Numbered from the stretch's first letter, positions 6,595 to 52,013 are shown. The stretch is 64,000 nt of DNA from an uncultured Chthonomonadaceae bacterium (GCA_963817895.1 CAWFQB010000004.1:160001-224000), one strand, 5' to 3'. Numbers and translations: made by a program. The notes: a model not told the origin generated them from the letters alone.

Positions 6595-6723
6595 TTGAAT
6601 TCTCTCCTTCGGAACGGCGAAATTAATCGTCGAGTGTTCCAATGCAGTCACAAATACAAAGCGCCCGTTCAAAATTCCTGCTATTGAAGGTACATTTAAC
6701 ATAAAGGATAAAGAGGAGGACAC

Positions 6724-7611: not shown

Positions 7612-7692
7612 TTTCGCTAGACAGTAATACTCATAATGGGGTTGTGAGCGTTGAAGTACAAGCCGCCATAATTGTGTTGGAATGTCGCTCAT
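7612..7692 (-). pseudogene. N-terminal remnant of HNH endonuclease
   Basis: MSDIPTQLWRLVLQRSQPHYEYYC resembles the MS.I...LR..V..RA...CEYC start of small HNH proteins; ATGA-coupled to the upstream gene, then runs into the opposing gene. Confidence 0.45.
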
Positions 7693-7919
7693 GGCTGTTG
7701 CGTGTTCTCTGAAATATGACGCTGTGTTCGCAGTTTCAGCAGTGATAGCCATTCCGCCATGTCCACAAGCCCTTCCGCTTCTTCCTGTTCTGCAGACGTT
7801 ATAGATTGACCCTGATCTTGTTTATCCAGCAAGTCTTGAAGGCGGCGTTGTACGCCCTGTGGCAAATGAAAGTCATTAAAGTCATCGGGCATTTCGACAG
7901 TGACAGTGGATGATGACAT
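7689..7919 (-). CDS. Small hypothetical protein (antitoxin-like partner of HNH)
   Basis: 76 aa MSSSTVTVEMP...QRRLQDLLDKQDQG...EAEGLVDMAEWLSLLKLR. Confidence 0.6.
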   Translation of the reverse strand: MSSSTVTVEMPDDFNDFHLPQGVQRRLQDLLDKQDQGQSITSAEQEEAEGLVDMAEWLSLLKLRTQRHISENTQQP

Positions 7920-7920
7920 G

Positions 7921-8780
7921 TTATTCTGCTTCCTCATCAGGTTCAGCCGTGTAGGATCTGCGATTGTCGAACAGGGCCAATTGCTGTACGATGCCGTCGT
8001 CGCCTTTGAGGTAGGTTCGGGGCGGTTCCTGATTGTCGTCCAATCCGCCCATTTTGTTGACCGCTTCGGCAATGCGCGGGACGCAGTACGTTTCCATCTC
8101 CTCGCGGATTTGCGCGGTGATAAAGCGCATGACCTGCCATCCCTGCGCGGCAAGGGCATTGTTGCGACGATTATCTTCCGGCGCGCGTTCGGTATTGATG
8201 TGCCAGAAGTCGCCGTCCGTTTCGAGATCAATCTTGCCGTCCGCGCAAAACAGGGCAAAATCCAGTTTGTACTTGCCGTCCACGACCTGAATGTCGTGCT
8301 GCCGCTCGGCGCGCATGTTAAGGCGTTTGAGTTGTTCCCATAGTTCATTTTCCAACGGGCTGTCGTCCCACAAGTCGTTGATTTCGTCTGCGGACAGCAG
8401 TTTGGAGTAGGTAGTGGGAATGAACACGATACGGCGCAGGCGCAGGCTGACATCGGAGCGGGCAGAGCATCCAGACGGTGCAGAAAGATTTGATAGTACA
8501 GTTTCTCTGATTTGGCGTTGGGAAACTCTTCAGGGAACAACTCCCGTCGCGGCACGCGGCGAATCATGCGCACCCTGCCGTGCCAGCGAACGGAATATGC
8601 CTCGTCCTTAAAGATTTTTGTCTGGTAGAAGGCGAGCCATTGCGGAGGCCAGCGGCGGGGCGCTTTATCCACCGGGATACGATACCAGAGTTGTTCCTGC
8701 ACCCGCCGCCAGTCGGTTGGGGCCCTCATAATGGCGACAAGGGCTTCGCCCCGTTTGGTTGTAGATTTGCCCACAAGCAC
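7921..8780 (-). CDS. DUF559/Vsr-like endonuclease domain protein (frameshift near 8450)
   Basis: N-terminal WYRIP/AFYQTK domain; C-terminal SPLENELW, YKLDFA, ETDGDFWH, DNRRNNALAAQGWQVMRF. Confidence 0.8.
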
Positions 8781-8906
8781 ATCCTTCCGCTTTTTCAGTA
8801 GCGCAGGCAGTAGAAATCTGCGAGAAACGTAGATTTCAATTCCTGCCGCCCCGCGTTTTTTCCTGCATGAAGCAGCGGCAATTTATCGGAAAGGCGGAAC
8901 CGGAGT

Positions 8907-9365
8907 ATGATTGGAGAGTTTGCGGGCGAACATCGCTTTTTGTCCAACTTCTACAAGTCACCCATTGAATTTGAGGGTGACACGTACCCGACCGTAGAAC
9001 ATGCGTTTCAGGCGGCGAAAACGTCCGATGCGGAAGAACGCGCCACCATTCGCGCCAACGCCAACCCTGTTATCGCCAAACGAAAAGGGCGTCGCGTCAC
9101 CCTCCGCGCCGATTGGGAAACGGTGAAGCAGGACATTATGCGCGACCTGCTGCGCATAAAATTCGCAAATGAGGAACTGCGCGAACGCCTGCTGCAAACG
9201 GAAGATGAAGAATTGATGGAAGGCAACCGCTGGCACGACAAATACTGGGGCCGCTGTCTGTGCGCGAAATGCGACAACACAGGCCAAAACGTCCTCGGCG
9301 AATTGCTGATGCAGATGCGGCGCGAACTGATGGAAGAGGGGCAGAATAGGGCGTGTCGCAAATAG
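8907..9365 (+). CDS. NADAR (YbiA-like) family protein
   Basis: FLSNFY, YPTVEHAFQAAK, AKRKGR, LRIKF, LMEGNRWHDKYWG and GQNVLGELLM. Confidence 0.92.
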   Translation: MIGEFAGEHRFLSNFYKSPIEFEGDTYPTVEHAFQAAKTSDAEERATIRANANPVIAKRKGRRVTLRADWETVKQDIMRDLLRIKFANEELRERLLQTEDEELMEGNRWHDKYWGRCLCAKCDNTGQNVLGELLMQMRRELMEEGQNRACRK

Positions 9366-9445
9366 CAAGCCGACAAACAGGAAATTCGCGTTCCGACAGA
9401 GAATAGAACGGCAACTACCCTCTGTAATCTGTTGGAGCGCGATGT

Positions 9446-10549
9446 ATGAACCTGCAAACCGAACTGGAACGTGTGCGCGAGTACCTGACGAACGTTGATA
9501 AGCGTCCGACCAATGAAGCCAATACCTGCGGCAAAATTATCACACCACTACTGCTGCAATGCGGCTATCATCATGACGATATTCATGAGCAGGGACATGA
9601 TGCAGGAGGCAACATTCCCGATTACACCTTTCTGCCTAATACGCCACACACATGGTTTTTGGAAGCAAAGGCGTGGCAGTCAAATTTTACGGAAACGCAT
9701 GTGATACAGGCAACGGGCTACCCACACGCGCAAGGTAAACGTTGGGTCGTGCTTTCCAATGGGCGCGAATGGCGGTTGTACGACAACTATAACGTGCAGG
9801 TTCCGCCGCCAAACCGTCTGGTAGCAACTGCGCGATTGGGTCATGGTACGGAATTAGAAGACCTGCTTACCGCGTTGAGCAAAGAGGCCGTGCAAGGCGG
9901 CGGTTTAGAAAAGTTTGTGTTGCAAACGGTGCTGAGTACCACTCTGCAACAGGAACTTGCTTTATCAACAAGCGATGTCATCCTAGCCATCGTCAACGCT
10001 CTCAAAGTCAAAAGCAGCATATCCACTATTACGCCCGATGCTGTTGTATCCTATTTTCACGCTTTGCAAACTAATGCAACCGCGCTCCCACCACCTGTGC
10101 AGCCGTCAATCGTACCCGTTGCCACCCCTACTCAAGCAGTACCAGCTTCGCCTGCATCACCTGCTGATGTGCTGAATCTGCTGCAACTGGCGGCTGCAAG
10201 CGCAGCTATCAAAGGCAAGAAGCCACTGCTGGTCGCCTTTCCAGACGGGAGTAGTCGATCTGTATCAACTTGGCGTGACGTGACAACCGAAATAGTGTCT
10301 TGGCTGTTCCCAAGATGGAAAGCGCCTGTCATACCGTTTTATGGAAATAAGAGCAAGAAGTATTACTTCATAAATACGTCACCTGTGCATCCGACTAACA
10401 AGCCTATGCATAATCGAACAATCAATATTGACAGCAATGTGTACTATATTGATACAGGAAAATTCGTGCGAGATCAGCTACACTGTCTCTACGAGCTATG
10501 TAAAGAAGTAGGGGAAGCGCCGGAGGGGTTTCGGGTGACGTTGCAGTAG
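9446..10549 (+). CDS. Type I restriction HsdR N-terminal-like PD-(D/E)XK nuclease domain protein
   Basis: NEANT...IITPLL..GY, PDY...LEAK, VLSNGREWRLY; Pro/Ala linker and uncharacterised C-terminal domain; lower GC. Confidence 0.75.
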   Translation: MNLQTELERVREYLTNVDKRPTNEANTCGKIITPLLLQCGYHHDDIHEQGHDAGGNIPDYTFLPNTPHTWFLEAKAWQSNFTETHVIQATGYPHAQGKRWVVLSNGREWRLYDNYNVQVPPPNRLVATARLGHGTELEDLLTALSKEAVQGGGLEKFVLQTVLSTTLQQELALSTSDVILAIVNALKVKSSISTITPDAVVSYFHALQTNATALPPPVQPSIVPVATPTQAVPASPASPADVLNLLQLAAASAAIKGKKPLLVAFPDGSSRSVSTWRDVTTEIVSWLFPRWKAPVIPFYGNKSKKYYFINTSPVHPTNKPMHNRTINIDSNVYYIDTGKFVRDQLHCLYELCKEVGEAPEGFRVTLQ

Positions 10550-10567
10550 GGGCGCATTGACGGGGGG

Positions 10568-10777
10568 TTCTACCCTCATCCGGCCTCCGGCCACCTTCTC
10601 CCTGCAAGGGAGAAGGCTAAACTATTCAATGGACGCGTTGGTTACAGGTTTGTTTCAGACGTATGGCGTTCTTATGCCGTTCTAACGGCAAACCTGTTTT
10701 CTGTTCACCCGCCCATTGATCACACTGGCCTTCTCCCTTGCAGGGAGAAGGTGGCCGGAGGCCGGATGAGGGTAGAA
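10568..10777. repeat. REP doublet (REPIN-like) with 50-bp perfect inverted arms
   Basis: ttctaccctcatccggcctccggccaccttctccctgcaagggagaaggc at 10568-10617, exact reverse complement at 10728-10777. Confidence 0.92.
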
Positions 10778-10847
10778 ACTCTCATGTATGCGCGCGTGAG
10801 GTCAGCAAATCGCCGATACGCAACTTCACGCCCCCAATCAAGAAACC

Positions 10848-11783
10848 TTAAACGCGAACGTAATTGCAGCTGGCAACGAGGCGGCCCGGAGAGCGCTCCA
10901 CGACCGCAATGCCGTTCGCGCTGCCGTCATTGTTGGAGTTGCCCTCGATAGTCATGTAGCGATCATTGCTTTTGACCGGACCGGCCACGAAACCGGTATG
11001 GAAATGACCGGACTCGCCGCCGATGCACAGGAAAATATCTCCCGGCCTCGGGCTGGAAACCAGTTTGTTATTCGCCTTTGCCCACCGGTAGACCGCGCTG
11101 CAACTGGCTTTGCCGTTGATATTCGCCATTGGATTGGCAACACCCATCTGGCTGGCCGCCAACTTCACGCAATGGTACACAAACGCCATGCACCACGGAT
11201 CACCCGGCGACGCGCCCGCATCTATCAAATACTGGCTCACTTCCGGCCCTTTATTGCTGCCGAGCGGCTGTTCATGGACGCCGATCAGCGTGGTCGCGAT
11301 TTGCAGGGCTGCGCCGCTCAGGTCGTTGCTATCCGCCGCTTTGGTGAACAGCGCCTGCCACGTATTCGGCCCCACCTGCCATCCGCTTCCAGCCCCACCG
11401 ACCTTTGAAACGCGGATACGGTTTCCTCGGTGGTCGGGCCGAATAATCCTGTTTGCTGCACCCCCAGGCGCTTCTGAATAAGTTTCACATTATCGCCTGT
11501 GCTGCCCGATTGCAGTATTGTGCCGGGTAAGGGATATTGTCCAGCGCGGGGGCGGCAAACAGCGCGCTCCAGGTATTCTGGCCGACAATGCCATCAGCCG
11601 TCAGCCCCTGCGCGGCCTGAAACGCTTTGACGAAATTCTCCGTCGTGGGTCCGAACAGCCCGGTTTGCTGTACTCCCAGCCGTTGCTGAATTTCTTTACA
11701 TCGTCGCCGGTAGCGCCGGCCTGAATGTTGTTGCCCGGAAATTCGTCTGCCACAGTAATCCTGCCTCCCATTTTTACAAGCAT
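10848..11783 (-). CDS. Peptidoglycan-binding repeat plus CHAP amidase domain protein (multiple frameshifts)
   Basis: FGPTTENFVKAFQAAQGLTADGIVGQNTWSAL PG-binding motif and a second copy (GPNTWQAL); CHAP PWCMAFV...HTGFV...TIEGN. Confidence 0.75.
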
Positions 11784-11884
11784 GGTTTCGATGATAATTG
11801 CTACATAGAAGAGTATAACCGAAAACTCGGCTGTTCGATGTGATAATATTCACAGGCTGCAAGAGAGATAATGCGCTTATCCGG

Positions 11885-27765: not shown

Positions 27766-28935
27766 GTGATTACGCGCGTTCGGGTGAAAAATTTTCGCAG
27801 TCTGGCGGATATAGATGTGACGCTCGGCCCACTGACAGTGCTGGTCGGGCGCAACGGCGCGGGTAAAAGCGCGTTTTTGGACGTGTTGCGTTTTGTAGGT
27901 GAAGCCCTACAGCCAGGAATGGGATTGGAAGCCGCATTTGGTCAGCGAGGAGCAATTTCGTCTGTGCGCCGTCGAGAACCGGAGCGTCTTTGCCATGATC
28001 TTGCCATCACGGTGAATGTCGAAGCGGAAGATCTATGGGCGGAGTATGGCTTCGTTATTGATACATGCGATGACAGTCTGATGCGCGTAAAGAGGGAGAG
28101 TTTGCGGCAGGGAACAAGCGAAGCATCTGCTCAGACCATTTTTGAAATTGAAAATGGAACGTGGAAAACGTCGGCATCTACACCGTTTGGCTCACTTGAC
28201 TCAGAAGAGCAAATTCCACGCGGTCATTTATTGATGGGAACATTGTCTTCATTCAGAATAGATACCGCGAACATGTTGCGGCATCTAGTGAATACAACAG
28301 TATACAACTTCAACCCGGCGACACTTCCTACTCTCCAACAGAAACGTGATGACCGTTTGTTGTCGCAGACCGGCGATAATCTCGCCTCGATGCTGCAAAG
28401 AGCGGATGAAGACGGTTGGTTATCTCCCATTAAAGCCACTCTGCGCTTGATTGTCAGCGATATTAAAGACGTTCGTGTAGATGCTATCAACGATCATCTA
28501 CTGATAGGTTTGCTTCATAGTGACTACAAAGAGAGTGCGCTTTGGTTCGACCTGAAAATGGAGTCCTCCGGCACGATAAGGCTTCTTGCGCTACTAACGG
28601 CTTTGTACCAGAGAGCGACGTACCCCTTGATTGCTATTGAGGAACCAGAATTGTTCTTATACCCAAACTCCATGCCGATTTTGGCAGGTGTCATCAAAGA
28701 AACCGCGCTCAATCATCAAGTGATTGTAACCACGCAAAGCCCGGACTTTATTTCTGAGTTTGATGTGGAGCAGTTGCTTATTGCAGAGCGTAAAGGGGGC
28801 ATGACACTCATCGGTCCATTGTTGCCTGAACAAATGGATGCTGTTCACAAGCAATTGTTTACAACCGGCGACCTGCTGCGCATTGAAGGGCTACGCGCTA
28901 CGCCTTTTGAAGCGGTGAGCGCCGCCGATGTCTAA
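27766..28935 (+). CDS. ABC/SMC-like ATPase (AAA_21 type)
   Basis: KNFRS, GRNGAGKS, ESSGT signature, IEEPE Walker B and TTQSP. Confidence 0.9.
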   Translation: MITRVRVKNFRSLADIDVTLGPLTVLVGRNGAGKSAFLDVLRFVGEALQPGMGLEAAFGQRGAISSVRRREPERLCHDLAITVNVEAEDLWAEYGFVIDTCDDSLMRVKRESLRQGTSEASAQTIFEIENGTWKTSASTPFGSLDSEEQIPRGHLLMGTLSSFRIDTANMLRHLVNTTVYNFNPATLPTLQQKRDDRLLSQTGDNLASMLQRADEDGWLSPIKATLRLIVSDIKDVRVDAINDHLLIGLLHSDYKESALWFDLKMESSGTIRLLALLTALYQRATYPLIAIEEPELFLYPNSMPILAGVIKETALNHQVIVTTQSPDFISEFDVEQLLIAERKGGMTLIGPLLPEQMDAVHKQLFTTGDLLRIEGLRATPFEAVSAADV

Positions 28936-29584
28936 AGTTGTACCGATTGTGGAAGGCCATGGTGATGTCGGCGCAGTGCCTGTTCTCTGCTACAAACTGT
29001 TGAGGGATAGTCAGCGGTACGATGTTCAGGTAGATGTCGCCATTGATGCGAAGGGGCGCAGTAATCTGACCAAAAAGGGCGGGTTAGAGCAGTTGATTGA
29101 ACGCGCCTGGAACCGACCGGGGTGTAATGCTGTTCTGATACTCGTGGATGCGGATGATAATTGCGCGGTTCATCTGGCAAGGGATTTTACAAGGCGTATT
29201 CTGGCGATGGGCAATCCGCGCTGCGCCGTTGTTGTAGCAGTCGCTGCAATGGAATACGAAGCCTGGTTTCTGGCAATCATGGAAACACTGGCAGGTCAAA
29301 TTGTTAGAGACGGTCTGATGTTACCGATAGAAACCAGCTTCACAGGAGATGTTGAAGCAATCAGGGATGTAAAGGCATGGATAACCAGCCAACTGCCCCG
29401 TGTAGGTGGATACAGGCGGGTAGCCTACGATGAAGCACAAGACCAACTTACTATGACGCGCTTGATTGACCCAACACTGGCCCGCGCCAACTCGCGCTCG
29501 TTTCGGCGGCTGTGCCATGCTATCGAACAAATTCTGGACGCGGTTGATAACAACAAGATTGTGGTGACGCCGGAAGCGGTATGA
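28928..29584 (+). CDS. DUF4276 family (TOPRIM-like) protein
   Basis: IVEGHGD, LVDADD, EYEAWFLA, Y...DQ and SRSFRRL; overlaps the ATPase stop. Confidence 0.85.
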   Translation: MSKVVPIVEGHGDVGAVPVLCYKLLRDSQRYDVQVDVAIDAKGRSNLTKKGGLEQLIERAWNRPGCNAVLILVDADDNCAVHLARDFTRRILAMGNPRCAVVVAVAAMEYEAWFLAIMETLAGQIVRDGLMLPIETSFTGDVEAIRDVKAWITSQLPRVGGYRRVAYDEAQDQLTMTRLIDPTLARANSRSFRRLCHAIEQILDAVDNNKIVVTPEAV

Positions 29585-35525: not shown

Positions 35526-36468
35526 CTACATGCCCTGTTTAGCCCGTCTGCGGCGCAGCAGCCATCCCGTTCCGGTCAAACCGCCTGCCAGAAGCAAGGC
35601 GATTGTGCCGGGTTCGGGAACAGGGGAATCAGAAGCCGGACGCCGAAACGCCAATCCCGCAGGAAAACTCAGGCCCGTCGCGAAGTCGCCCATATCATGG
35701 CCGGTTACGGAAAACTCTCGCACGGTCGAGCCACCGAAATTAACAACGTACAGGTTACCGTTTGTGTCAAATGCAAGAATTCGTGGGCACATTTAAGCCT
35801 GTCGTGGCGAAGTCACCCATATCCACTCCCGTCGGCGAAAAACGGCGAATGGCGTTCTTGGCCCGATTTACGACGTACAGGTTGCCTGACGTGTCGAAAG
35901 CCAAACCTTGTGGACTGGATAGCCCGGAGGCAAACACGCCTAGGTCTTGGCCGGTTGCGGAAAACTCTCGCACGGTCGAGCCACCGTAATTGGCGACATA
36001 CAGATTGCCGTTTGCATCAACGGCCATCCCCACGGGATTGGATAACCCTGATGAAGCGAACACGCCTAAATCCGCTCCGGTTGAGGAGAAGCGATGCACC
36101 GTATTGCCAGCATAGTTGCTGACATACAGGGTGTCGTTGTGGTCAAAAACAAGTCCATCAGCATCACTCAATCCCGTCGCTGCGAAGTTGCCCAGATCAA
36201 CCCCCGTCGGCGAAAAGCGGCGAACGTTGTTGGTAAGCGCACCGGCAATATAGAGGTAGCCTTTGGAGTCAAAAGCCATGTCGTAAAAACGAAAGGTTCC
36301 GCCTGAGGAGGTGAAGAGGCCCAGGTTCGTTCCATTCGGTGAAAAATCGTAGGCGCGATTATTGTAGTATTCGCCCACAATGAGGTGCTGAGCGTTGGCA
36401 ATGGTGGACAGCAAGGAAAAAGCAGAGGCAGCGACGACGGCGGCAAACTTGCAGGTAAAACGAAACAT
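35526..36468 (-). CDS. PEP-CTERM protein with NHL beta-propeller repeats (frameshift near 35780)
   Basis: Signal peptide; about six P.GLAFD..GNLYV.N.....VR.FS.TG.DLG.FA repeats; terminal VPEPGTIALLLAGG...RRRR. Confidence 0.9.
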
Positions 36469-36643
36469 AAAAGTTTCTCCTTTTTGAGAAAGCATTGTCA
36501 GCAGATGCGGCAAGAAAGATGCCGAGACAACATTGTTGGCTGTTGTCCAGGAAAGGGGAGAAATCGCGCAAAGTATGACACGGTTTCTCCCCTTTCTCCT
36601 CAATCCATCAGATTTTTAGCGCATAGACGCCATCATCAGGTAA

Positions 36644-36973
36644 CTACCGCCCCGGCGTACCGCCGGGATTGCCCGTTCCCGTTCCCGGCTTGCCCGGGCC
36701 ATTGCCGCCCGTTCCCGGTCTGCCTGGGCCGCCACCCGTTCCCGGTCTGCCTGGGCCGCCACCCGTTCCCGGTCTGCCCGGGCCATTGCCGCCAGTCCCC
36801 GGCTTGCCCGGCTGGCCTCCGCCAGTCCCCGGCTTGCCGCCACCGCCGTGTGGATGTTGGCGACCCTGGGCGCTTGCCGGATGCGACAGCGCCAGAGAGC
36901 AGAGTAGCGCGACTACCATAACAGGAGCGACGCCACTCAACCTGTGTGAGAGTCGAGTTGATAGAAGGAACAT
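36644..36973 (-). CDS. Secreted Gly/Pro-rich tandem-repeat peptide
   Basis: Hydrophobic leader ending ASA|Q, then six (K/R)PGTG-initiated units of 8-9 aa encoded by 24-27-bp repeats. Confidence 0.7.
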   Translation of the reverse strand: MFLLSTRLSHRLSGVAPVMVVALLCSLALSHPASAQGRQHPHGGGGKPGTGGGQPGKPGTGGNGPGRPGTGGGPGRPGTGGGPGRPGTGGNGPGKPGTGTGNPGGTPGR

Positions 36974-37330
36974 TAGATCAATCTCCTATTTCAGCCTGCC
37001 AGGCGCAGACTGAATCTTGGAATTTACTGTCCGAAAGCCTGGACAAACAATGTGGAGTGAAGCTCAGTAGAGTGGCCGGATGCGAATTGCCGAAACCCCG
37101 CGCCGCTCTCATTTGCATAGTTGGTGTAAACTTTGCCTCGCTTACAATATATCTACAAATTTTTGAATTATTTTTCTCCGTTCTTTTATTCATCAAGAGG
37201 AAGGTATTCGTGCCGTCGAAACAAAACTTACCTGTAAATAGCGGAGTATTGAATAGCGCAGCACATTCATCCACACATAGACATGCGCTTTTACACGTTT
37301 GCCGGGAATGATATCGAAAGAGGGTTTTTT

Positions 37331-40300
37331 ATGCGGTTTACCTCACGTATTCTTGGTGTTGTTACCGTGCTGTATGTCGGTGGATACTGCCAGATGCCCA
37401 TGCCTGCATCCCCGCATCACAGACAGGCGCAACCGGCAAATGACGCGCACACGTTCGGGGTGGTGGTTGAGGCGGTTGAACCCGGCTCCACTGCGGCAAA
37501 GGCCGGGCTATGTGTCGGCGATGTTTTACAGGAGTATGGCGGGCGTTCATTACGCACTGTGTTTAAATTTATGGCGGCACAGGAAAACACGGTTGCCGCG
37601 TCCATCACGCTCAAAGGGTTGCGGTCTGGTCAGCCTTTGTTGGCGCAGTTACCAATGCAGTCGCCGGGCATACCGTCACCGGATGTAACGCCAAACATGC
37701 GCGTTCACCCACAATGGTCGAATATTGCGCAGGCTTTGTATCAAGCCGGACAGACAAGCATTTTAGGAGGGCGTATCGAAGAGGGTGTTGTTTCCTGGCG
37801 AAATGCGATAGTAGAACTAGAAAATTCTGGCGATGCCGTTGAAGCGGGCTGGCTCTGCTGGCGGACGGGCGAAGCATATAGTGTTCGGGGTGACTGGAAG
37901 CAGGCGCAGCAATGGCAGGAACACGCCTGGAAGAATGTGAAGTCGGGGAATGACGCGGCTGCGCAAACATGCGTACTACATTCACTGGGAGAAGTATGGG
38001 AACATCAGGGTGATCTTGCAAGAGCCTTCGATTGGTATGAGCAGGCGCGAAAACTGAACATCGCAAATCAGAACGTCTTCTGGCAAGCCAACGATCTGGA
38101 TAGTGAGGGCGATCTTGCATTTGCGCGTCAAAAATGGAATGAAGCGAACAAATTGTATGAGCAGGCGCTCACGGTCTGCCAGCCGCAGGCTCCCGCCGCA
38201 TGGCAGACCGCGAGTATACTTTATCGCCTGGGCAAGAACGCCGAGGCACAGGCGAACCATCTACAGGCGCAAAAGCGCTATCAGGCGAACCATTACAGGC
38301 GCAAAAGCGCTATGAAGATGCCCTCGCTATCATACAAAAACAGACACCTGACTCGTGGGATGCAGCCTCAATTTGCTTCGACATGGGGTTAATGGAATTC
38401 CATCAGGAGAACTGGACTAAAGGGATAGAATATTCGCGGCAGGCGCTGATCCTCTTTCGCCGGAAAGCCCCCAACTCCAGGGAGGTGATGCAAGCCCTTC
38501 TCAACATGGGACAAGCCGCCGAGAAACAGGATGATCTGAGCCATGCCTATGCGTATCTTGAAGAAGCCCTTCATGTAATCCGAAACCACAAAACTGACGC
38601 TGGCGCGTTCACCGATATAACAGTCGAGGCGACGTGTTGCGCGCATCTTGGGATTCTTGCCTTGCGACAGGGGCATTCAGAAGATGCGCAGAAGTACGCG
38701 CAGGCTGCAATTGCCATTTATGAAACGCAAAAGCCTGTGTTACTTGATATGGTGGCTCCTCTGGGAACCTTGGGAACTCTCGCGCTTAATGAAGGAGATT
38801 TGCCACAGTCGCAGAATTACTATAAATACGCTCTCGAAATTTGTAAACGTTATGGTTCGCCGCCTGGTCAAACATTGGATGTTTTGCGCCTGCTGGATGG
38901 GGTTACAATGCTACAGGGCGCATCGTCAAACGCGCAACTATACATTCAGAGAGCGGCTAAATTACTAAAATCTACTTCCGACCCAGCGGAAAAGGCTGCT
39001 TTGCTGGACGGTCTAAGTCTGGCAGCCGTTCAACAAGGGCGCTGGAAACTAGCGCAGCAGTACGCGCAGCAGTTACTGACAATTCAACAACGCTTCTCCC
39101 CTGCCTCTTCGAGCCTGATAGAAATCTATGCTCTGCTCGGATATATTGAGGCGCAGCAGAAAGACTCCACGAACGCCCAACTCCATTTTCAGCAGATGCT
39201 CGCCCTGACGCAGAAATTTGCTCCCGACTCACTGGAGGAAGCCAATGCGCGCGCTTTCCTGGGACATGTACTGCTGGTAAAACGCGACTATGAAGGCGCT
39301 TTGAAGCAGTTTGAAGACGCCGTTACCATTGTCGAAGCGCGGCGGCAGCGGCTTGCCAACCCCGAAAACCGCGCGTTTCTGCTGGAACAACATTCCGTCC
39401 CTTTCATCGGCATGATGCAGGCGCAAATCGCCCTGAACCAGAAAGAACAGGCGTTTGAAACGCTGGAACGCGCCCGCGCCCGCAGCCTTGTAGACCTGAT
39501 CCGCGAACGGAAACCATCGGCCTCCATGCCTCCCCTGCCGGACGCGCCCCCGGACTCGGCGGAACAGCAGAAGCTCATCCGGCAGCGTAGCGCGTTGTCG
39601 CAACAACTGCTTGTCGCGGCTGCCGATCCGCAGCAGACCAAAGCCAATGAACTGCGCGAGAAGATTCAGACGCTCGACGCGAAACAGCGCGAATTGGAAA
39701 CCGCCATTCGCCAATCCTCGCCGCATTACGCCGGTCTGAACTATCCCAAACCGTTGACCTTTGCGGAAGCGCGGCAAACGCTGGATGATGGAACCCTGCT
39801 GCTGGCCTACGCGCTCGGCGCAAAGCAAAGCTACCTGTTTGTCGTGACCAACAAAACCGAACTGCGCATTGTTCCGCTTGCGGTTGGCGAGGAGGCGCTT
39901 GGGCGGGAGGTGAAGGAGCTGAATGACGCGCTGAAATCGAAGGGGAGTTACCTAAATCCTGCCCGCCTGCTTTACCGGCAGTTGGTTGCGCCCGCGTGGA
40001 AGGAGATTGCCGCTTCCCGGCGCATCCTGCTGTGTCCCGACGGCGTTCTGAATACCCTCTCCTTTGCCGCTCTGGTCACGTCCCCGCCGGACAAACCCGG
40101 TAAGCCGGGGCAGCCGGCCACGCATCTGGTGGAAGCCAAACCGCTGCACGTCATCGCGTCCCTGAGCCTGTACCGCGAATTGCAACAAATGCAGGTTTCC
40201 CGCTCCGGCAAAATACTCGCGCTTGCCGACCCGGATTCCACAAAAAGTGGGCTGCATCTCGATCCGATCCGCAAACCCTTCAGCAGATTACCGATCTGAA

Positions 40301-40822
40301 AAAACTGTACGGCAATCGCGTGGAAGCGTATACCGGCAAACAGGCGACCACAGCCGTTGTTCGGCAGCAGGGATTGCAGGCTTCCATTCTGCATTTCGCC
40401 TGTCACGGCCTGCTGGAAAATGGCGACCCGCTCTCCTCCGCCCTCGCGCTCAGTTCGGACGGCGCGGATAAGGGGCTATTGACGGCTGCGGGTATTCTGC
40501 GCCTGCATCTGCCCGCCGATCTGGTCATGCTTTCCGCCTGTAAAACGGGTTTGGGAAAGCAAACGCAATTCGAGGGCGTAGTGGGCTTGACGCGGGCATT
40601 CCAGTATGCGCGCGGCGCAGCGTGGGCGTGAGTTTATGGCAGGTGGACGCGGACAGCGCGAACGCCCTGATGAACCATTTTTATACCGAATACAAAGCGG
40701 GCATCGGTAAGGATGTCGCGTTACAGAGGGCGCAGGTCTCGATACTGCGCGATACGAAAAATCGTGGCTGGCAGCATCCCTACTATTGGGCGGCGTTCCA
40801 GATGGTCGGCGATTGGAAATAA
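37331..40822 (+). CDS. Signal peptide-PDZ-TPR-CHAT caspase-like protease (three frameshifts)
   Basis: PDZ GVVVEAVEPGSTAAKAGL..GDVL; TPR array; AFETLERARARSL; CHAT CPDGVL, LHFACHG, LVMLSACKTG, SLWQV and HPYYWAAF. Confidence 0.88.
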
Positions 40823-40839
40823 GTCAGCGCGGAGAAGGC

Positions 40840-41844
40840 ATGGAATCAGAGCAACCCGAACGGCTGTCACGTCTGCTTGACGAATACTACGCTGCTGATG
40901 CGGCTGATTTGAAGGCGTCCGGCCGTCTGGAAGAAGCAATTCTGGAGGAACTTGCGCCGCTCGTCCGTAGAAAAATAGCGTCCGAGGGGTTTCCGCGCGC
41001 CGAGGCCGAAGACATATTTCAGACAGCGTATTCCAGAACCCTTCACAGATTGAGAAGATACCGCGACAGCAAAACTCCCATTCCGAATATCTTGGGATTG
41101 GCGGCAAGAATCACAGCCTGCCTCCTTGCTGAAGAATTTCGGCGGAATTCTCCCGAGTATCGCATGGAACGCGATGTGCGCGACAGGCTGCGGCGTCCCC
41201 CGCTGAACACCCTGCTGGCGCGCTGGCAGCTGGCGGAGTGGTTGATCGGACTTGTCGAATGGCATGGCACACCCTTTCAGAAGACGCCACGCTATGCCGA
41301 ATTTTGCCGCGATGACACGCGGTTCGCGCAGGAGGGATTGGAGGGACGCCATCCCGCCAACCACAAACAGGTCAAACTACCGGAACTTTTGCTGAAATTT
41401 TTACAATGGGTGGAAACGCCACTGGAAGAAAGCAATCTGATCGCGTGTCTGGTGAGATTGCGGGGTGAATTGCCGCGCGTCATTGTTGCGTTCCCGGAAA
41501 ACGAGGAGAATGAGGAATGGCTCGCCGCGCCAAAACCGCCGGAAGCCAGATGGAACTGGGAATCCTGGTGGCAGGGACTATGCGAATTGCCTCTGATGAG
41601 CCGCGCCGCCATTCTGCTGGTCAGGGAACCGGCAGAACTTGTTTTTATAACCACGCTGGAGAATCCCTGCGCCTACGTTGCCGCCGCGCTGAACATTGAT
41701 CCCGACGAGATGGAGCGTTTGTGGGAGAAACTGCCGCTGACAGACACAGACATCGCTAACCGCTATGAAACCACAGCCAATAACATTCAACAAAGGCGTT
41801 CTTACTATCTGCCCCGGTTGTGGAGGCGGCTTATAGAGCCTTAA
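40840..41844 (+). CDS. Atypical ECF-like sigma-70 factor
   Basis: Region-2-like AEDIFQTAY...LAARIT...FRR; large insertion; region-4-like LPLTDTDIANRYETTANNIQQRR; precedes an anti-sigma-like gene. Confidence 0.65.
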   Translation: MESEQPERLSRLLDEYYAADAADLKASGRLEEAILEELAPLVRRKIASEGFPRAEAEDIFQTAYSRTLHRLRRYRDSKTPIPNILGLAARITACLLAEEFRRNSPEYRMERDVRDRLRRPPLNTLLARWQLAEWLIGLVEWHGTPFQKTPRYAEFCRDDTRFAQEGLEGRHPANHKQVKLPELLLKFLQWVETPLEESNLIACLVRLRGELPRVIVAFPENEENEEWLAAPKPPEARWNWESWWQGLCELPLMSRAAILLVREPAELVFITTLENPCAYVAAALNIDPDEMERLWEKLPLTDTDIANRYETTANNIQQRRSYYLPRLWRRLIEP

Positions 41845-41995
41845 CCTTTGAAGTTTGCTTGTGTAAGTTTGCTTGCTGTCAGGCGCTTTGATGTAAGAAT
41901 CCTGAAATCGCGCCAACTATTGTGTAGGAGAGCAACCCAATAGACTGCAAAATTGTTCTCAAAAACTGACCCTGAAATTGGATAAATCACTTTCG

Positions 41996-43634
41996 ATGAA
42001 CGAAACCAATCCACATTTGACACCCTCGGAAATTGACCGCATCCTCGCCAATGCGCGGCATCCTGACCCTTCCGCTGAAGCCGCGAACGCGCATCTGAGG
42101 GAGTGTGAGCCATGCCGCCGCGCCCTGCGCTCCCACGCGCCCGCCGTCGAAGCCCGTCTGCTGCATCTGTTTGCCCGAACGGAAAGCGATGCGCCGACAA
42201 CGAAATCAGCAAATACTACAGGGGCGGCAAGCGAATGGGAGCAAGAGGAATGGGCTGATGAGGAATGGATGCGGGCGGAGGACACGGAAAGCGGCTGGCT
42301 GCAAGAGGAGTGGGGATGTGTCGCGCAGGAGGATTTGTCCCGCTACGTTGCCGATGAACTCAGCGCGTCCGACAGAACGCGCGTCGAGACACATCTTCAG
42401 GAGTGCCATCTGTGCCGCCGGGACGCGCGGGAACTACTACAGCTTCACAAAGATGCCGAAGAACTGGTTCAATCCCTGTCCGGTTCCGCCACCTTTGCGC
42501 CGCAAGTCGCGCCACCTGTTACAGCCCCCGCTTCCCCGCAGCCTGAAATCTGACTCCGCCGCGCCTGCCGAAACGCCGAAAGTTGACGCGCCGCCTGTCA
42601 ATGACGCAAAAACGGTATGGCAGCGTTGGCGCGCGAAATGGCTGCCCGACCCTCTGTTCGCGCCGAACTCGCTTTTCCCGTTGGGAGTGGGCGCGGCGTT
42701 TGCGGCCAGCGTACTGATGTTCGGGTTTATCCTGCCCCTGCGCCAACAGCTAAACGCGCAAGTTGAAGCGCAAAAGGGGGCGGCTGCCCTGCGAATAAAG
42801 GAAGATGCCGCGCAATCCGCGCGTCTTCAGGCCGAACGGGAACAGGCCGGACAACAGCAGGCGCAAGCGCTTGCGCAAAACCGAGCGCAAGCGGCCCAAC
42901 TCCAAAAAACGCAGCGGGAATTGGCAATGGCGCGTGAGTTACAGAAGCAGAATCCTCTAGCCGGGGCGACTCCGTTGCCGAATAACGCATCGGGCGAACA
43001 AATTTTCAGCGACAAACAGGGCAGATTGGTTCGCTTGCAGAGGATAGACGCAGGCATAAGCAAAATTTATTCTCATCCTGACCTCGCCTTTGCGGAAGGC
43101 CAAAGTCGGGTTGGCAATCTTGCGTCCGGGCGAGGTGTTACGTTGGGCAGCGGGCACGATCCGACAGCCGCCATTACGTTGCTTACGCCAGTCGCCTGCG
43201 TGGTCGCCTCCACAACACCGAAATTCCAATGGCGTCCTCTTAACGGTACTGTGCGCTATCAGGTTCAGATACGGGAGGTGAACAGTTCCGTTGAACTCTC
43301 TGCAAGCAGGGAACTTGATGCTGCGGAATGGACTCGCGGTGAGCCATTGCGTCGGGGCGTCCTGTATTCGTGGCAGGTTGTCGCCATAAAGAGCAACGGC
43401 GAGAAAATCCCTTCCGACAGCAAAACGTTCCAGGTGTTGGACGCGCAAACGGCGGCGCAAATAGACAGTCTTGCGGGTTCCCCCCTCCTGCGCGGCCTGC
43501 TGTATACCAACGCGGGCGCATTTTTGGAGGCCGAACAGGAGTTCAGGCAGTATCAACAGGCCAACCCCCATTCGCCACAGGCGCGTTCGCTGTTGAAGCG
43601 AATTCAGGCGCTCCGGCAAACCTTCCAAAAGTAA
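41996..43634 (+). CDS. Membrane anti-sigma-like protein with two zf-HC2 motifs (frameshift near 42550)
   Basis: HLRECEPCR and HLQECHLCR; TM LGVGAAFAASVLMFGFIL; coiled coil; DUF928-like PKFQW...YSWQV; terminal TPR-like helix pair. Confidence 0.78.
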
Positions 43635-43861
43635 GGGCAGGGCAAGTCCTCGAATTAACGTGGAAACAGAAACGTACATAAAGCAACTGTAGCGTAGAAA
43701 AATGCATGCCGTCTGGCAGCGTAAATTGCCGACACGTTTTTCGTCCGCAGGATGATTGGCCGCAGGCCTAACAACTGGCATTTTATATGCCGGTTCCAAT
43801 GATTTCACTCGCGTTCATTCGCGTTTATTCGCGGCTCTATTTTGGATGTCAGGAGAGTGGT

Positions 43862-46827: not shown

Positions 46828-49800
46828 CTAGCGCGAATTCATACGGCAGATAGGCGCGATGACGAACAATTGCGCGGCCATCCATACGGGCGCAAGGGAC
46901 TGCCGACTGTCGCGGGCAATGCGGCGAATGATCTGTGGGAACAGTCTTTGCAGCATTTTGGTTTGCGCAAACGTCGGCAGGGTATTGATGGCCTGCCGCA
47001 CCTGCTTGCGCGCGTCTGCGAACGCGCCGGCTTTGCTGGAAGCGTCTGCCGCCTGCACACCCACCAACCCGGTCACGAGCGGATACAGGAACTGGTAATA
47101 GGCGGGCAGGGACGACGTTTCGCACCCGGCGAAGATACTCCTGCGCAGGCTGCGGTTGCGCCGGACAGCGCGGCATCGAGGGCCAGCCAGAGGGCGTGTC
47201 TGGCCGTGCAGTTATCCCCCCGCAGGGTCAGGGCATGGCGATGAATGGGCGCGGCTTCTTCGTCGCGGTTCAGGTTGCGCAGGGACACGGCGCGGTTGAG
47301 CAGCATCCAGCTTTGCGCGTCGCTTCGGGTTTGCCAGTCCTGCGTCCACTCCACCGCCTTCTCGTGCTGCCGCAGGGTTGTCAGCGCATACGCCACGCTG
47401 CCCCAGGTTTCATCGTGTCGGCGCAGCAGGGCGCGATGCAGATGCGCGAATTTGTTGAACGCTTCCACGTTTTTCGCTTCGCTCAACGCCTGCCACCCAA
47501 CCGGCAAGAGCGCGAACGCCGATCTTGCCCCGCGCCGCCAGACGTTCCAAACGCGATTCCGCCTGCCACTCGCCCCGCTGTACGCAGTCTTTGGCCCAGT
47601 GCCAACCCACAACCGGCTGCGCATCCGGCTGCTCGACTAATTGCGCCAGGAGGGGCGTTAGCGATTGCCCATAACCGGCATTCCGCAGCCGTTTCAGGGC
47701 TTCCTCAATGTCGTCGCTAATATCGCCGGGAAGCAGGCAAAGCGCGTGAAGGTAATGAAGAGCGGTTCGCTCGTCCTTGCGATGCAGGGCCAGGCGAATG
47801 GCGAGAACATGCGACCAGCCTTCCCGCCCCCGCGCCAGCAGCGCGTCAACCGTCTGCTGCGCCAGAGGGGTTTCCCCATCCTCCATCTGCATCTCGAACA
47901 GGGCGACGCCCGCATACGCCGCGTCCGATGACACCATAATCGCTCGCCAGAACGCCTGTTTCGCGCCGTTTTTATCGCCGCTTTTGCGCAAAGCGTCGGC
48001 AAGGTACGTGTGGGAAATGGCGTCCTGCGGATCAAGGGCGACCATGCGCCGCGCGGCCTCCTGGTACACGTCCACGACGTTCTGGCTGCGGCTCCAGCGC
48101 GCCAGTTGTGTCCATCCCCACAGGTAGTTGGGATCATCGGCAAGCAGAGTTCGCATCTGCGTCAGGGCCTCGCGTACATGGCCCCGTTCCGCCGTGACCC
48201 AGGCCATTCGCGCCCGCAGGGAGGTCGGCACAGCCTGCCCCGCAGGAGGCTGGCAGGCGCGCAGGGCGTCGTCGAATCGTCCCTGTTCCGTCAGCAATAC
48301 CGCCTTGAGCGCATACGCCTCGTAACTGCGGGGATTGAGGAGAATGGCGCGATCCAACGCCGCCAACCGTTCGTCCAGCAGTTCAGGGCGATCCAGCGCC
48401 TTCGCCAGCATCAGCCACGAGCGCACTTCGCCCGGACGCCTGCGTGTCAGGTCGCGCAGGGCTTCTTCGGCCTCGTTGCGCCTTCCGGTCTGCTCCGACC
48501 AGTCGTGCAGGGCTTCCCACGCCCATCCATAGGCCGGTTCCAGGCGGGTAATGGCGCGGGCCTGCTCCACGGCCTCCTCGCGTTTCCCCATCTGCCAGAG
48601 CGTGTACGCCATGCCGGACAGGGTTTCCACGTCCTGCGGGTCGCGCATCAGGGCGGTCTGGAGAACCTGCCGCGACTCGTCCCATCGTCCCTGATCGCGA
48701 TAACTTACGCCCAACTGCCGCGCCAGGGGCGCGTAATCGGGAAACATCCGCATAGCCTGCTGTAGTATTTCCTGTTCGCCCGCCGGGTTCGCCTGCGCTT
48801 TTCGCGCGCCCGCCAGATCTTGCCACAACGCGGGATTGAGCGGAAAGCGGGTCGTAGCCTGCATTGCCAGTTGTTCGGCTTCGGGGGCGCGATCCAGGCC
48901 AATCAACTGCTGAATGGCGGCAGACCAGGCATGCCACAGGTCAGGGCGCTCCCGCAGGGTTACGTAAACTGCGCTGTATATCTCTTCGGGCGACAGGATA
49001 CCCTTCGCGTGCTGCCGGAATCCGAGCAGTCCGTCGCCATAGACCGTTTGCCGCTGCAATTCCGTCTGAATGAAGTAGATCGCTTCCCGTTTTTGCGCGG
49101 GCGTGTCACACGCGCCGACGAAACGGCCCAGAGCGTAATCGTTGTCAACAGAAAGCGTGATGGCGCGGCGATAATGGTCGCGCGCCGCGTCCCATTTGCC
49201 CATTTGCCCGCACAAATCGCCGAACACGGCGTAACCATAGGTGGTGTTGGGTTCCAGCAGGAGGGCCTGCTCCGCATGAAGCAGCGCCTCGTCTATGCGG
49301 TTCTGGTCGCCAAGCAGATGCGCCAGTTCGCGCCGCGCCCAGGCATCGGCGGGGTCAATGTCAATCAAGTGGCGCAAAACGCGCTCGTGGGCGGCGGCAT
49401 CGTGTTCCAGATCGTTGCCGCGCATCCATTTGGCCCACTGCTGATGCAGGCCGCAGTGGTGCGGGAAGCGGGCGGTAATCGCCTCGAAATGCTGCTGTAC
49501 CGCGCCCGGTCCGATGGATTGAAGCAGCAGATTGGCAACAGCCGCGTGCGCGTCAAGCGCCAGCGGGGCAAGGGCTAAAACCTCGCGCCAGCAGGCGAGA
49601 GAGAGCGTGTTATCATTGGCATGGCCGGCAATTTGCGCCTGCGCCCGCAGCCAGTCCACGCGGGGCGTTTTGTCGCGAGCGGCTTCCAGCAGGGTTTGGG
49701 CGGCGGGCAGTTGGTTGTGCCGGGCGCGCTGTCGGGCCGCGAACAGCAGCAGTTTGCCATCCTCCGGTCGGCGCGACAGCGCCTGTTCCAGAACGGCAAA

Positions 49801-52013
49801 CGCCTCCTGCGAACGATCCAACTCCATCAGAGCGGCATACAGCGTGTGCGCGGGGAGCGTGGATTGCTTGCCCAATCGTTCAAAGCGATTGCGCAGAAAT
49901 GCCAACGCGCTTTCGGTCTGCCGCAGATAGCGGGCCGCCGCGAAATACGCGCGCGCCAGACTTTCACTGGTATTTTCCAGACACGCGGCGAAACGGTACA
50001 GGGTAAACGCTTCGTCAAACTCCTGCCGCTCCCACAGGATGTTGGCGAGTATAAACAGATTGCCCGCTTCCGGGGACGGCGGCGAATGGCGCGTTTCAGC
50101 AGAAGCAGGGCGCGTTCGTGTTCGCGGGCATCATCGGCAAGCTCCTGCGCGTACTGCTGCCAGAACAGGGGCGCGGCGGCGGCAAGAGAAAACTGCGTGG
50201 AAGCGGCATCTCTGCCCGTTTCCGGCGTTGCGGCATCCTCTTGCGCCTCTGTTTTTCCCCATGCGGACGCCTGCCGGCATAATGTTTGCAGCAAATTCAG
50301 GCGCTCGTCACGGCGCGACAGGCGATGCAGACACGAGATATGCGCCATTTTCAGGTTCGCGTCTTCGGGAAAGCGCGCTTCCAGTTGTTGCGTGCAGGCG
50401 AGAATTTCCACCCCGTCCTCATCGTAAAAGGCCAGGGCGCGGCGGGCCTCCAGGACAAGAGTATGCTCCCCCGCCTGCGCCTGCATGATCTCGTATTCGT
50501 TCTGCGCGGCAGCGCGGTCATGCCGCACAAGGGCGCGGGAAAGCCGGTAGTAGCGGTCGTACAAAGCCTCATCGGGCAGTTCGATGCCGTCCAGCAGATG
50601 GGCGCTTTCCGGTGGCGCGAAGACCATGCCGGTCGGCCCGATGGCGCGCAGGGATTGCAGCATCTCCTCCGCCAGCGCCTCGCGAATGGCGCGAACGTAT
50701 GGGTCGCGTATCAGGAACGTGCCTCGCCGCGAATCGTAGCCGATCACGGCCTGCAAATGCGCGTAGCCCGGCCCTGCGGTTGTCAGCGTAAACGGGACGC
50801 CCCTGTCCAGCAACTGCCGCGCGCTGTCCCACGTCACGCGGAAATCGCGGGCCGTCCAGCCGCGCGATTCGGCCCAGTATCGCTCATTGTGCCAGGGCGT
50901 CCCGTTGTAGCAGATGTCGTCCGCGATTTCCAGATGGTCTACCGTCTGCTGCCAGAATCGGCCCAGAGTGGCGAGCGTAGCCGGGGCGCAGGTCATGTGA
51001 TGCTGCCGCACCCATCCGACGGGCAGTTGTACGCGGGTGGCGTCGGGAAGCGCGGCTTCCATGTTGGCGACAATGCGCGCGAAATACGGCGACTCGGATT
51101 GCTGCGCAAGCGCAATGGCGGCAGCGTAATCGCCGTTATGGTACGCCAGGTCGGAACGGATGCTTGCGATCCATAAATGCAGCTCTTTGCCCGCAAGCGG
51201 CGCCAGGATTTCCAGGCGTTCCAGCGCCACGCCGGCTTCCGGGTACATCTGCCGTTCCAACAGCATACCAAGCAGTTGATGCGTGATAACCGTGCTTTCC
51301 AGGCGTTCCGAAGCGGATTGGAGCTGTTCCAGCGCCTCCTCATCGCGGCCCAGGAGAACCAGTCCCTGCGCGACCGCCTGCACACCCGCCCGATACCAGG
51401 GCTGCAATTGCAGCGATTTTTTGGCCGCGCTCAGAGCCTCCTCGTAACGGTCGGCCTGCTCCAATGCGCTCGACCGCTCCACCCATACCCAGGGATTGTC
51501 GGGCGCAAGGGCGACGGCCTGCGCAAACCAGGCGTCGGCGGTATCGAAATCGCGCAGGGTGGCCGCGACCAGACCGCGCAGGGACAGCCATTCGGCCCGG
51601 TCGCTGCTTTCCGCTGCGGGATGCGCGTCATCGGGTTCTCCCAACCGGTTCATGGTTTTCCAGGCGGCGAGCGGCCCTTTGCGCTCCATCACAACCCGCG
51701 CATAAGCGTAACGGGCGCGGGGATGCCTGCGATCCAGGCGGTACGCGCGCAGGTGCAGCCAGTCCGCCAGTTCCTCATCGCCCAGATTGGCGGCCAGCCG
51801 CCCCGCCAGGTCACAGGAGGAGGCATCCCGCAGACCGGTGAACGGCAAATAGGGTTCCAGAACGGCATACGCCTGCAGGTACAATCCCTGCTCGACGAGT
51901 TCGCGCGCCCGCCCCATATCCCTGTTGGAAAAACGCGAAGAATCGTTGGCAGGCGAGTCGGTAAAGGAAGCGGAAAGCGCCTCGGTTGGGTTCGTTATCG
52001 TGAGCATTGACAT
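46828..52013 (-). CDS. Giant TPR protein with central C39-like (papain-fold) peptidase domain (several frameshifts)
   Basis: VRQHHMTCAPATL and AHLQAVIGYD...RDP; TPR arrays on both sides; about 1700 aa across four or more ORF pieces. Confidence 0.8.

Follow-up and report, generated by a model that had tools for sequence, protein, structure and literature searches.

We analyzed a stretch of 64,000 nt from an uncultured Chthonomonadaceae bacterium (GCA_963817895.1, CAWFQB010000004.1:160001-224000; in the following called the window), which corresponds to G000:C4:160001-224000 in our numbering of the source genome (G000; 7.48 Mb in 14 contigs, 81% complete). The window contains three consecutive plus-strand genes for an exported CHAT protease, a long sigma factor and an anti-sigma factor bound to the membrane (Table 1). 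The initial annotation of this DNA had described this trio as a candidate caspase-triggered sigma system, and its anatomy was confirmed: the three genes are co-oriented, and the catalytic and zinc-binding motifs are found where they had been placed. Other genomes and loci are designated by G and L numbers, respectively; G002 belongs to the same genus.

Table 1 Features of the protease-sigma-anti-sigma trio and its upstream flank, in window coordinates
Feature	Position	Strand	Basis
PEP-CTERM protein with NHL repeats, divergent, with a frameshift near 35790; candidate target	35526-36603	-	Pfam NHL/SGL, PEP-CTERM; target status inferred
Divergent secreted Gly/Pro-repeat protein, candidate target	36644-36973	-	Open reading frame, leader, repeat D1; target status inferred
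Conserved non-coding block, partial match to acidobacterial motif (A/T tract, GTAA)	37117-37170	-	Conserved with G002
Signal peptide-PDZ-TPR-CHAT caspase-like protease, about 1150 aa provided that its three breaks arose in assembly	37331-40822	+	Pfam PDZ/TPR/CHAT; G002 orthologue; paralogue L001
Putative Sec signal peptide, atypical c-region	37331-37435	+	Hydrophobicity heuristic; similar leader in G002
PDZ domain, altered GxLG[LV] loop	37454-37720	+	Pfam PDZ_6 5.6e-7, PDZ 6.3e-5; aligned with 6 other PDZ-CHATs
32-bp duplication, frame-breaking, likely assembly artefact	38262-38293	+	Skipped in run X1 contig
CHAT helix alpha1 region; Gln at predicted S1 position (Glu in Arg-type partners)	40269-40298	+	Clan CD topology inference
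His/Cys catalytic motifs LHFACHG and LSACKTG	40389-40409, 40530-40550	+	Motif positions
Long extracytoplasmic function (ECF)-like sigma factor, 334 aa: sigma2, ~130-aa inserted domain, sigma4	40840-41844	+	AlphaFold model, structure and profile matches
Anti-sigma ZAS-ZAS-transmembrane-coiled coil-helix-loop-Fn3-helical hairpins, about 545 aa; one break near 42548	41996-43634	+	Pfam, G002 alignment, structure model
Single transmembrane helix of anti-sigma	42684-42740	+	KD19 2.0
Candidate cleavage or active-site-binding loop GVTLGS (family motif hydrophobic-M/L/R-G)	43134-43151	+	Conserved column; coil in G002 model

The first gene encodes a leader with the hydrophobic core ILGVVTVLYV (KD10 2.65, a hydrophobicity heuristic only), followed by the PDZ domain and by TPR arrays and a CHAT domain recognized by Pfam, the latter split over three frames. 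Among the CHAT proteins associated with relatives of this sigma factor, the catalytic Cys is invariant (71/71) and the His is present in at least 90%. A search of the PDB by sequence gave matches to TPR proteins only among the 60 listed for the profile and none for the CHAT domain alone. The only match to DUF928 was below the cut-off and in one relative (L192). Six CHAT genes are present in G000, and the five CHAT domains other than that of the window are unbroken. One of them belongs to the paralogue L001, an intact leader-PDZ-TPR-CHAT protein of 1137 aa, which faces a second sigma/anti-sigma pair.

The product of the middle gene is only weakly matched by Pfam Sigma70_r2 (0.012), and it scores 15.9 bits against the TIGR02937 cut-off of 42.9, a model that is matched by 14 of 16 family members (best E 3.9e-11). 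Its AlphaFold model (pLDDT 90.4) nevertheless has both sigma folds, in agreement with the annotation as sigma-like: in a wide structure search, sigma2 (residues ~1-104) matched SigW (Z 11.2, root-mean-square deviation 2.2, 90 residues aligned) and sigma4 (~235-334) matched region 4 of E. coli sigmaE (Z 8.0, 1.9, 66 aligned). Foldseek with the same model returned nothing at E ≤ 0.001, with sigma factors in nearly all top rows. For the insert between these domains (~105-235), searches with the whole model yielded no matching fold, and the Atlas gave only an unnamed cluster at 0.78. The family is large, with 1451 clusters of 50% identity at E ≤ 1e-30. It occurs in 44 of 251 genomes of its own phylum, and G000 alone holds six loci.

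The anti-sigma factor contains two HxxxCxxC motifs at 42092 and 42392 (zf-HC2 4.5e-8, in two stretches), one transmembrane helix and an outer domain with an Fn3 fold. For the outer part of the G002 orthologue a hairpin, helices, a low-confidence loop (residues 65-80), an Fn3 sandwich and two helical hairpins were predicted, and the sandwich was supported by a structure match (Z 10.7, root-mean-square deviation 2.6, 91 residues). The sequence VTLG of the window protein (43137-43148) lies in the predicted flexible loop just before the Fn3 domain. In the G002 model this loop is coil (pLDDT 64-73) and far from the membrane. Among 105 aligned anti-sigmas, the central column of the motif is occupied by M (47), L (22), R (15) or a gap (13). 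A complex prediction for the last 640 aa of the G002 CHAT protein and the anti-sigma outer part scored 0.00, which is uninformative either way.

The independence from CRISPR claimed for this locus was supported: no CRISPR array was found among the direct repeats of the window, and no cas or CBASS gene was matched in the 37 of 61 picked window reading frames that were scanned, the genome outside the window not being part of this search. A candidate for a site-2 protease, an RseP-like M50 protease, is encoded elsewhere in the genome (C1:1066227).

To delineate the conservation of the trio, we assembled 140 distinct sigma loci. The own phylum contributed 64 of them, and the other 76 came from a pattern scan with a bias to Acidobacteriota, in which the best 80 of 328 matches were retained. 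Word-index homologue searches had given two matches each. The trio is conserved across these relatives. The gene order varies, with the CHAT gene upstream, downstream or convergent, and CHAT and anti-sigma are separate genes in the window and in the relatives surveyed. At the 90 loci with full flanks (at least 5 kb upstream and at least 6 kb downstream), 56 had both the anti-sigma outer domain and CHAT, 10 the outer domain only, 2 CHAT only and 22 neither; the corresponding numbers for the 48 such loci of the own phylum were 17, 8, 2 and 21. Hence, 56 of the 66 loci that have the outer domain also have CHAT, compared with 2 of the 24 that lack it. CHAT follows the anti-sigma outer domain, not the sigma factor. 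The profiles were iterated on these loci. Since kin are not independent, no p-value is attached to this co-occurrence. Sigma factors accompanied by kinases, transporter-fused ZAS proteins or other partners have no CHAT. At five loci with the outer domain and no CHAT (L044, L077, L085, L092, L196) a gene for a peptidase C14 caspase lies close by, and the motifs of these anti-sigmas read R/K by eye.

Several alternative arrangements were observed in this survey. At L036 (9081-10775), and likewise at L002, L037, L038, L039 and around position 250500 of G000 contig C14, the gene after that for the long sigma encodes a fusion of tandem ZAS domains with a complete sodium:dicarboxylate symporter (Pfam SDF 8e-93 and zf-HC2). 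This fusion occurs in four genomes of the family besides G000 and is possibly a transporter-sensor anti-sigma; the literature search returned no matching title for it. At L045 (6832-7866) and L049 (6783-7736) a long sigma gene without an anti-sigma gene precedes a Ser/Thr kinase gene (Pfam Pkinase for L045), and at L034 (9857-12535) a long sigma and a double-ZAS protein without a transmembrane helix are followed by a NACHT protein. The ZAS anti-sigma of L084 (6403-7776) has DUF4384 as its outer domain, and the genes after it encode secreted proteins, a subtilase among them. At L192 (879-3122) the transmembrane-outer domain part is fused to a different, ZAS-free N-terminal part of ~450 aa beside an exported PDZ-TPR-CHAT protein, with no sigma match in the contig.

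The protease and the outer domain of the anti-sigma are predicted in the same compartment at nearly all loci. A clear transmembrane helix was found in 94 of 99 anti-sigmas, a borderline one in two and none in three (L041, L043 and L048, all from G011). The CHAT proteins of L041 and L043, the two soluble G011 anti-sigmas with a whole CHAT, start at the PDZ domain and lack a leader, whereas almost all other CHAT partners carry a signal-like leader, as judged from hydrophobicity and by eye. A third soluble pair was found in another genus (L208 in G291), here with an ordinary ECF sigma of 210 aa. Conversely, the PDZ-CHAT proteins with a leader (window, G002, L192) pair with transmembrane partners. 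The joint loss of transmembrane helix and leader in three pairs favours a substrate link between the two proteins, as far as can be judged from predicted topology. A metagenome scan for further soluble anti-sigmas yielded three loci, all with a transmembrane helix. The zinc ligands are partly lost in the anti-sigmas of L043 and L048, and a BTAD/SARP-like regulator gene adjoins the CHAT gene in L208 and L001.

A second connection is suggested by the residues of the anti-sigma loop. In metacaspase, MALT1 and gingipain, a P1-Arg is bound by an acidic residue of helix alpha1 (PMC4357240). From topology we tentatively equate one alpha1 column of the CHAT proteins with this S1 residue of clan CD proteases. 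Among related proteases, cleavage follows M or L in craspases and R in separase (PMC11506125). In 68 pairs, an R/K motif in the anti-sigma was combined with Glu in alpha1 in 18 cases and never with another residue, and an M/L motif was combined with a non-Glu residue in 27 and with Glu in 23 cases. For the own phylum the respective counts were 14, 0, 5 and 0. Ten further readable pairs brought no violation (R with Glu, 5; M with Glu, 3; M with non-Glu, 2); among the additional loci, L192 was unclear, L195 a near-duplicate and L200 a partial sequence. The window pair combines Gln in alpha1 with Leu in the motif. A similar motif is present in the CHAT proteins' own loop before helix alpha1, although it is absent from the window and G002 enzymes. 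This loop had R with Glu in 21, M/L/V with non-Glu in 18 and an offset or other combination in 10 of 49 proteins.

We further searched for a promoter motif. In the acidobacterial relatives, an A/T tract followed by GTAATA-N15-CnnCTT lies upstream of 30 of 44 CHAT genes and of 8 of 68 sigma genes. In 31 of the 35 regions that bear the motif, the neighbour it faces is divergent, compared with 25 of the 69 regions that lack it. These divergent genes mostly start with a signal-like leader (by eye), and the 12 that were scanned encode varied secreted proteins, including beta-propellers, outer-membrane barrels, a glycosidase and proteases. In the window, the partially matching block upstream of the protease gene faces two genes for secreted proteins (36973-35526). 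Genes for PEP-CTERM proteins, to which one of them belongs, are not enriched near CHAT loci (7 of 26 own-phylum loci versus 19% of random 16-kb G000 windows) and were therefore not counted as support. A G000-wide scan for the A-tract/GTAA pattern gave 46 unspecific matches and defined no regulon.

The closest known system, overlooked in the initial annotation, is the sigma/anti-sigma pair DdvS/DdvA of Myxococcus xanthus. DdvA is a periplasmic TPR-CHAT protein fused to a ZAS anti-sigma, for which the same site-1 role of CHAT has been proposed; cleavage by CHAT is unproven there, and the action of RseP on truncated DdvA has been shown (PMC11506125). Both systems share an ECF sigma, a zinc-binding single-pass anti-sigma, an extracytoplasmic TPR-CHAT with a His/Cys dyad and the proposed order of a CHAT site-1 cut followed by RseP, and the promoter-like motif of the relatives, which the window matches only in part, starts with GTAA, as does the DdvS promoter GTAAn16CGT (PMC6061681). 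They differ in that the TPR-CHAT is here a separate gene product with its own leader, while it is fused to the anti-sigma in DdvA. Moreover, the anti-sigma is distinguished here by its two ZAS domains together with a coiled coil and an Fn3 cap, and the sigma factor by an insert of ~130 aa; in one lineage a PDZ domain is present as well. The candidate targets are secreted and surface proteins, whereas DdvS controls a CBASS/CRISPR island. The second relevant system is the type III-E Craspase (Csx29/Csx30/CASP-sigma), in which a TPR-CHAT acts on a separate sigma-binding protein and whose related enzymes cut after Met or Leu. There, Csx29 cuts Csx30 in a small loop of its C-terminal domain (residues 427-429), far from the sigma-binding part (PMC10028731). 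In contrast to this system, there is no Cas7-11 or crRNA here, the protease is exported and its substrate would be a ZAS protein in the membrane; the Csx29 model scored 35.7 bits with the paralogue L001 versus a cut-off of 300 and did not match the window protease fragments. HetF-PatU3 of Anabaena also joins a CHAT-family protease to a dedicated protein substrate, but in the control of cell division and heterocysts, and the accessible text mentions no sigma/anti-sigma pair (PMC9457339). No description of a split or PDZ-bearing form was found in the literature searched, with subscription papers and supplementary tables outside its scope, and the main text of the ECF reclassification paper (PMC7826278) mentions neither CHAT nor caspases.

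On the established anatomy, folds, conservation and covariation patterns we base the following proposals for binding, cleavage, signal and regulon. The trio is, with somewhat better than even probability, a split, CRISPR-independent form of the DdvS/DdvA switch, in which a signal-activated CHAT protease cuts the anti-sigma loop and the sigma factor is freed. As suggested by family knowledge and gene order, the tandem zinc-binding domains would keep the long ECF sigma bound at the membrane. The TPR-CHAT protease, exported separately, would be off at rest until its TPR array senses a protein signal; the PDZ domain would be a lineage-specific addition. The active protease would then cut the exposed loop before Fn3, after the Leu of VTLG here and after Met or Arg in relatives, as the covariation suggests. 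Following the loss of the Fn3/helical cap, the remainder would be open to trimming and to intramembrane cleavage of the RseP type. The freed sigma factor would transcribe the divergent genes for secreted and surface proteins, a step that is supported in the acidobacterial relatives and assumed for the window.

A more far-reaching interpretation appears plausible to us, though at somewhat less than an even chance: that the trio represents a family of trans-envelope switches which is widespread in Armatimonadota and Acidobacteriota and has so far escaped description. In this family a separately exported clan CD protease (CHAT, in some cases replaced by a C14 caspase) would cut the anti-sigma by a one-residue code (Glu pocket with Arg; Gln or small residue with Met/Leu), mirrored in the protease's own autoinhibitory or self-cut loop, and would thereby free a long ECF sigma with a new insert; one lineage would have added the PDZ domain and later moved the pair into the cytoplasm. 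Outside of CRISPR, site-1 cleavage by CHAT has been proposed and is unproven for DdvA, because no trigger is known there and a single chain comprises both enzyme and substrate. In the present case separate genes encode the two in hundreds of genomes, which makes the cleavage question directly testable. The handles are a predicted cut site, a likewise predicted specificity residue for which Arg and Met/Leu variants exist in nature, soluble versions that lend themselves to purification (L041, L043, L208) and a candidate promoter motif for a reporter. If true, a function would be assigned to a large class of exported bacterial caspase-like proteins.

Several points weigh against the cleavage switch. 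RseP-type proteases are thought to accept fewer residues outside the membrane than the ~130 that a cut at the motif would leave, and therefore extra trimming has to be assumed. Eight of the ten full-flank loci with the outer domain and no CHAT are also without a C14 match. L103 combines a transmembrane anti-sigma with a CHAT protein lacking a clear leader, as the one counterexample to the shared compartment, and the soluble pairs may share one origin. In compiling the 68 pairs, three rows were left out, and Arg was assigned by eye in four cases. Mapped on trees (a quick tree and FastTree), the covariation comes down to three independent pairs whose branches are supported, of which one is concordant, none is discordant and two are uninformative. 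It is not significant there, nor is it within the acidobacterial set alone (p = 0.12). The alpha1 column was chosen post hoc with knowledge of clan CD and ranked only 11th in a blind mutual-information scan of motif versus CHAT columns in the own-phylum subset; the top columns of the full set were lineage markers, and nothing exceeded the permutation level in the acidobacterial subset. The 23 pairs in which a Glu-type CHAT, mostly with Arg in its own loop, stands beside a Met/Leu motif fit a relaxed enzyme or an uncleavable mimic, and they follow the motif code only if the Glu pocket is tolerant. Of 16 own-phylum regions upstream of CHAT genes, none contained the exact promoter motif; because of this and of the missing PEP-CTERM enrichment, the target genes in the window are named as candidates only. 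The trio also carries more frame breaks than expected (see below). Finally, even for DdvA cleavage by CHAT is unproven (PMC11506125).

The anti-sigma loop could instead be a pseudo-substrate or docking motif that binds the CHAT active site in a partner-switching mechanism, with CHAT cutting itself or a third protein. The proteases' own loop indeed tracks alpha1 almost perfectly and the anti-sigma motif mismatches in 23 of 68 pairs, and the position of the motif far from the membrane is in line with this view as well. However, an Arg motif never occurs with a non-Glu pocket, the catalytic Cys is invariant, and C14 caspases can stand in for CHAT, which renders this explanation unlikely compared with cleavage of the loop.

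A narrower model, put forward in the initial annotation, takes the PDZ domain as a DegS-like sensor of C-terminal peptides that gates the protease. In the DegS-RseA-RseP-sigmaE system of E. coli, regulated proteolysis is executed by a periplasmic PDZ protease on a single-pass anti-sigma. The present system resembles it in the separate periplasmic protease with a PDZ domain, the single-pass anti-sigma and the site-2 protease encoded in the genome, but has a clan CD cysteine protease instead of an HtrA serine protease, an N-terminal, optional PDZ domain with an altered loop and a ZAS anti-sigma. The PDZ domain precedes the TPRs in eight forms (window, G002, L001, L192, L041, L043, L208 and P0153), and PDZ models of the HtrA/DegS type match it weakly, with HtrA models matching the PDZ only. 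On the other hand, besides the window and G002 it was found in just three of the 69 CHAT partners of full length and in two of the 13 of a second set, and is missing from L046, the sister of the G002 orthologue in a quick tree. Both the window protein and L001 depart from the GxLG[LV] loop that the other PDZ forms show, and three forms (L041, L043, L208) are cytoplasmic instead of exported. Gating by the PDZ domain thus gained little from our analysis and appears improbable; these comparisons point to an accessory role of the domain in one lineage, as a sensor or for docking, rather than to the core of the switch.

It is distinctly unlikely that CHAT is an output of the sigma factor or a co-regulated gene and the anti-sigma is released otherwise, by a housekeeping site-1 protease or a change in zinc or redox state. 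The family does work without CHAT, with kinases, transporter-fused ZAS proteins or other outer domains, and ten full-flank loci have the outer domain alone. On the other hand, the presence of CHAT goes with that of the outer domain and not of the sigma factor, as counted above, the compartments of both proteins change jointly, and the promoter-like motif faces away from the CHAT gene.

Four frame breaks occur in the trio, three in the protease and one in the anti-sigma gene, while the sigma gene is intact. The first is the 32-bp duplication, which is absent from a ~97% identical contig of run X1; skipping it restores the frame. The second and third correspond to the loss of one base each near 40260 and near 40615 compared with G002, in which CHAT is a single open frame at both positions within an 850-aa frame over TPR-CHAT. 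Across 39972-40681 another contig has 8 additional bases, a difference that two one-base losses together with an in-frame indel would explain. The fourth is an extra base near 42548 that is absent from a run X3 contig, and G002 is in frame there. As a control, we scored frame switches in conserved genes (G001 genes with a close G000 orthologue) and found them in 27 of 118 (23%; 0.25 per kb), from which ~1.5 breaks are expected in 6.1 kb (P of at least four, 0.07). Contigs of relatives lack the duplication and the extra base, but no run from the same strain spans the trio, and the identical pieces of run X2 are short and bridge none of the breaks, so the breaks are not proven errors. Assembly error is the likelier cause, judging from these sequence comparisons. 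That the window copy is decaying, with protease and anti-sigma truly broken in this strain, is very improbable despite the excess of breaks and the five unbroken CHAT domains elsewhere in G000, given the share of control genes broken in the same assembly, the relatives lacking the duplication or the anti-sigma indel, the different indels that G002 has of its own in this region, the intact dyad and the absence of premature in-frame stops apart from the frameshifts.

Directly downstream of the trio lies a cytochrome P450 gene (43787-45214), which is present in G002 too and does not recur as a neighbour at the other loci viewed. A REP-like interspersed repeat at 43740-43795, 3′ of the anti-sigma gene, has 37 blastn matches in the genome. 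Further features of the window are a lower-GC stretch with NADAR, CHAP and unannotated genes (6048-11862), a large C39-like peptidase with TPR arrays in two frames on the minus strand (47413-52013), and a gene pair for an ATPase and a DUF4276 protein (27766-29581) that matches the candidate defence system HEC-01A/B.

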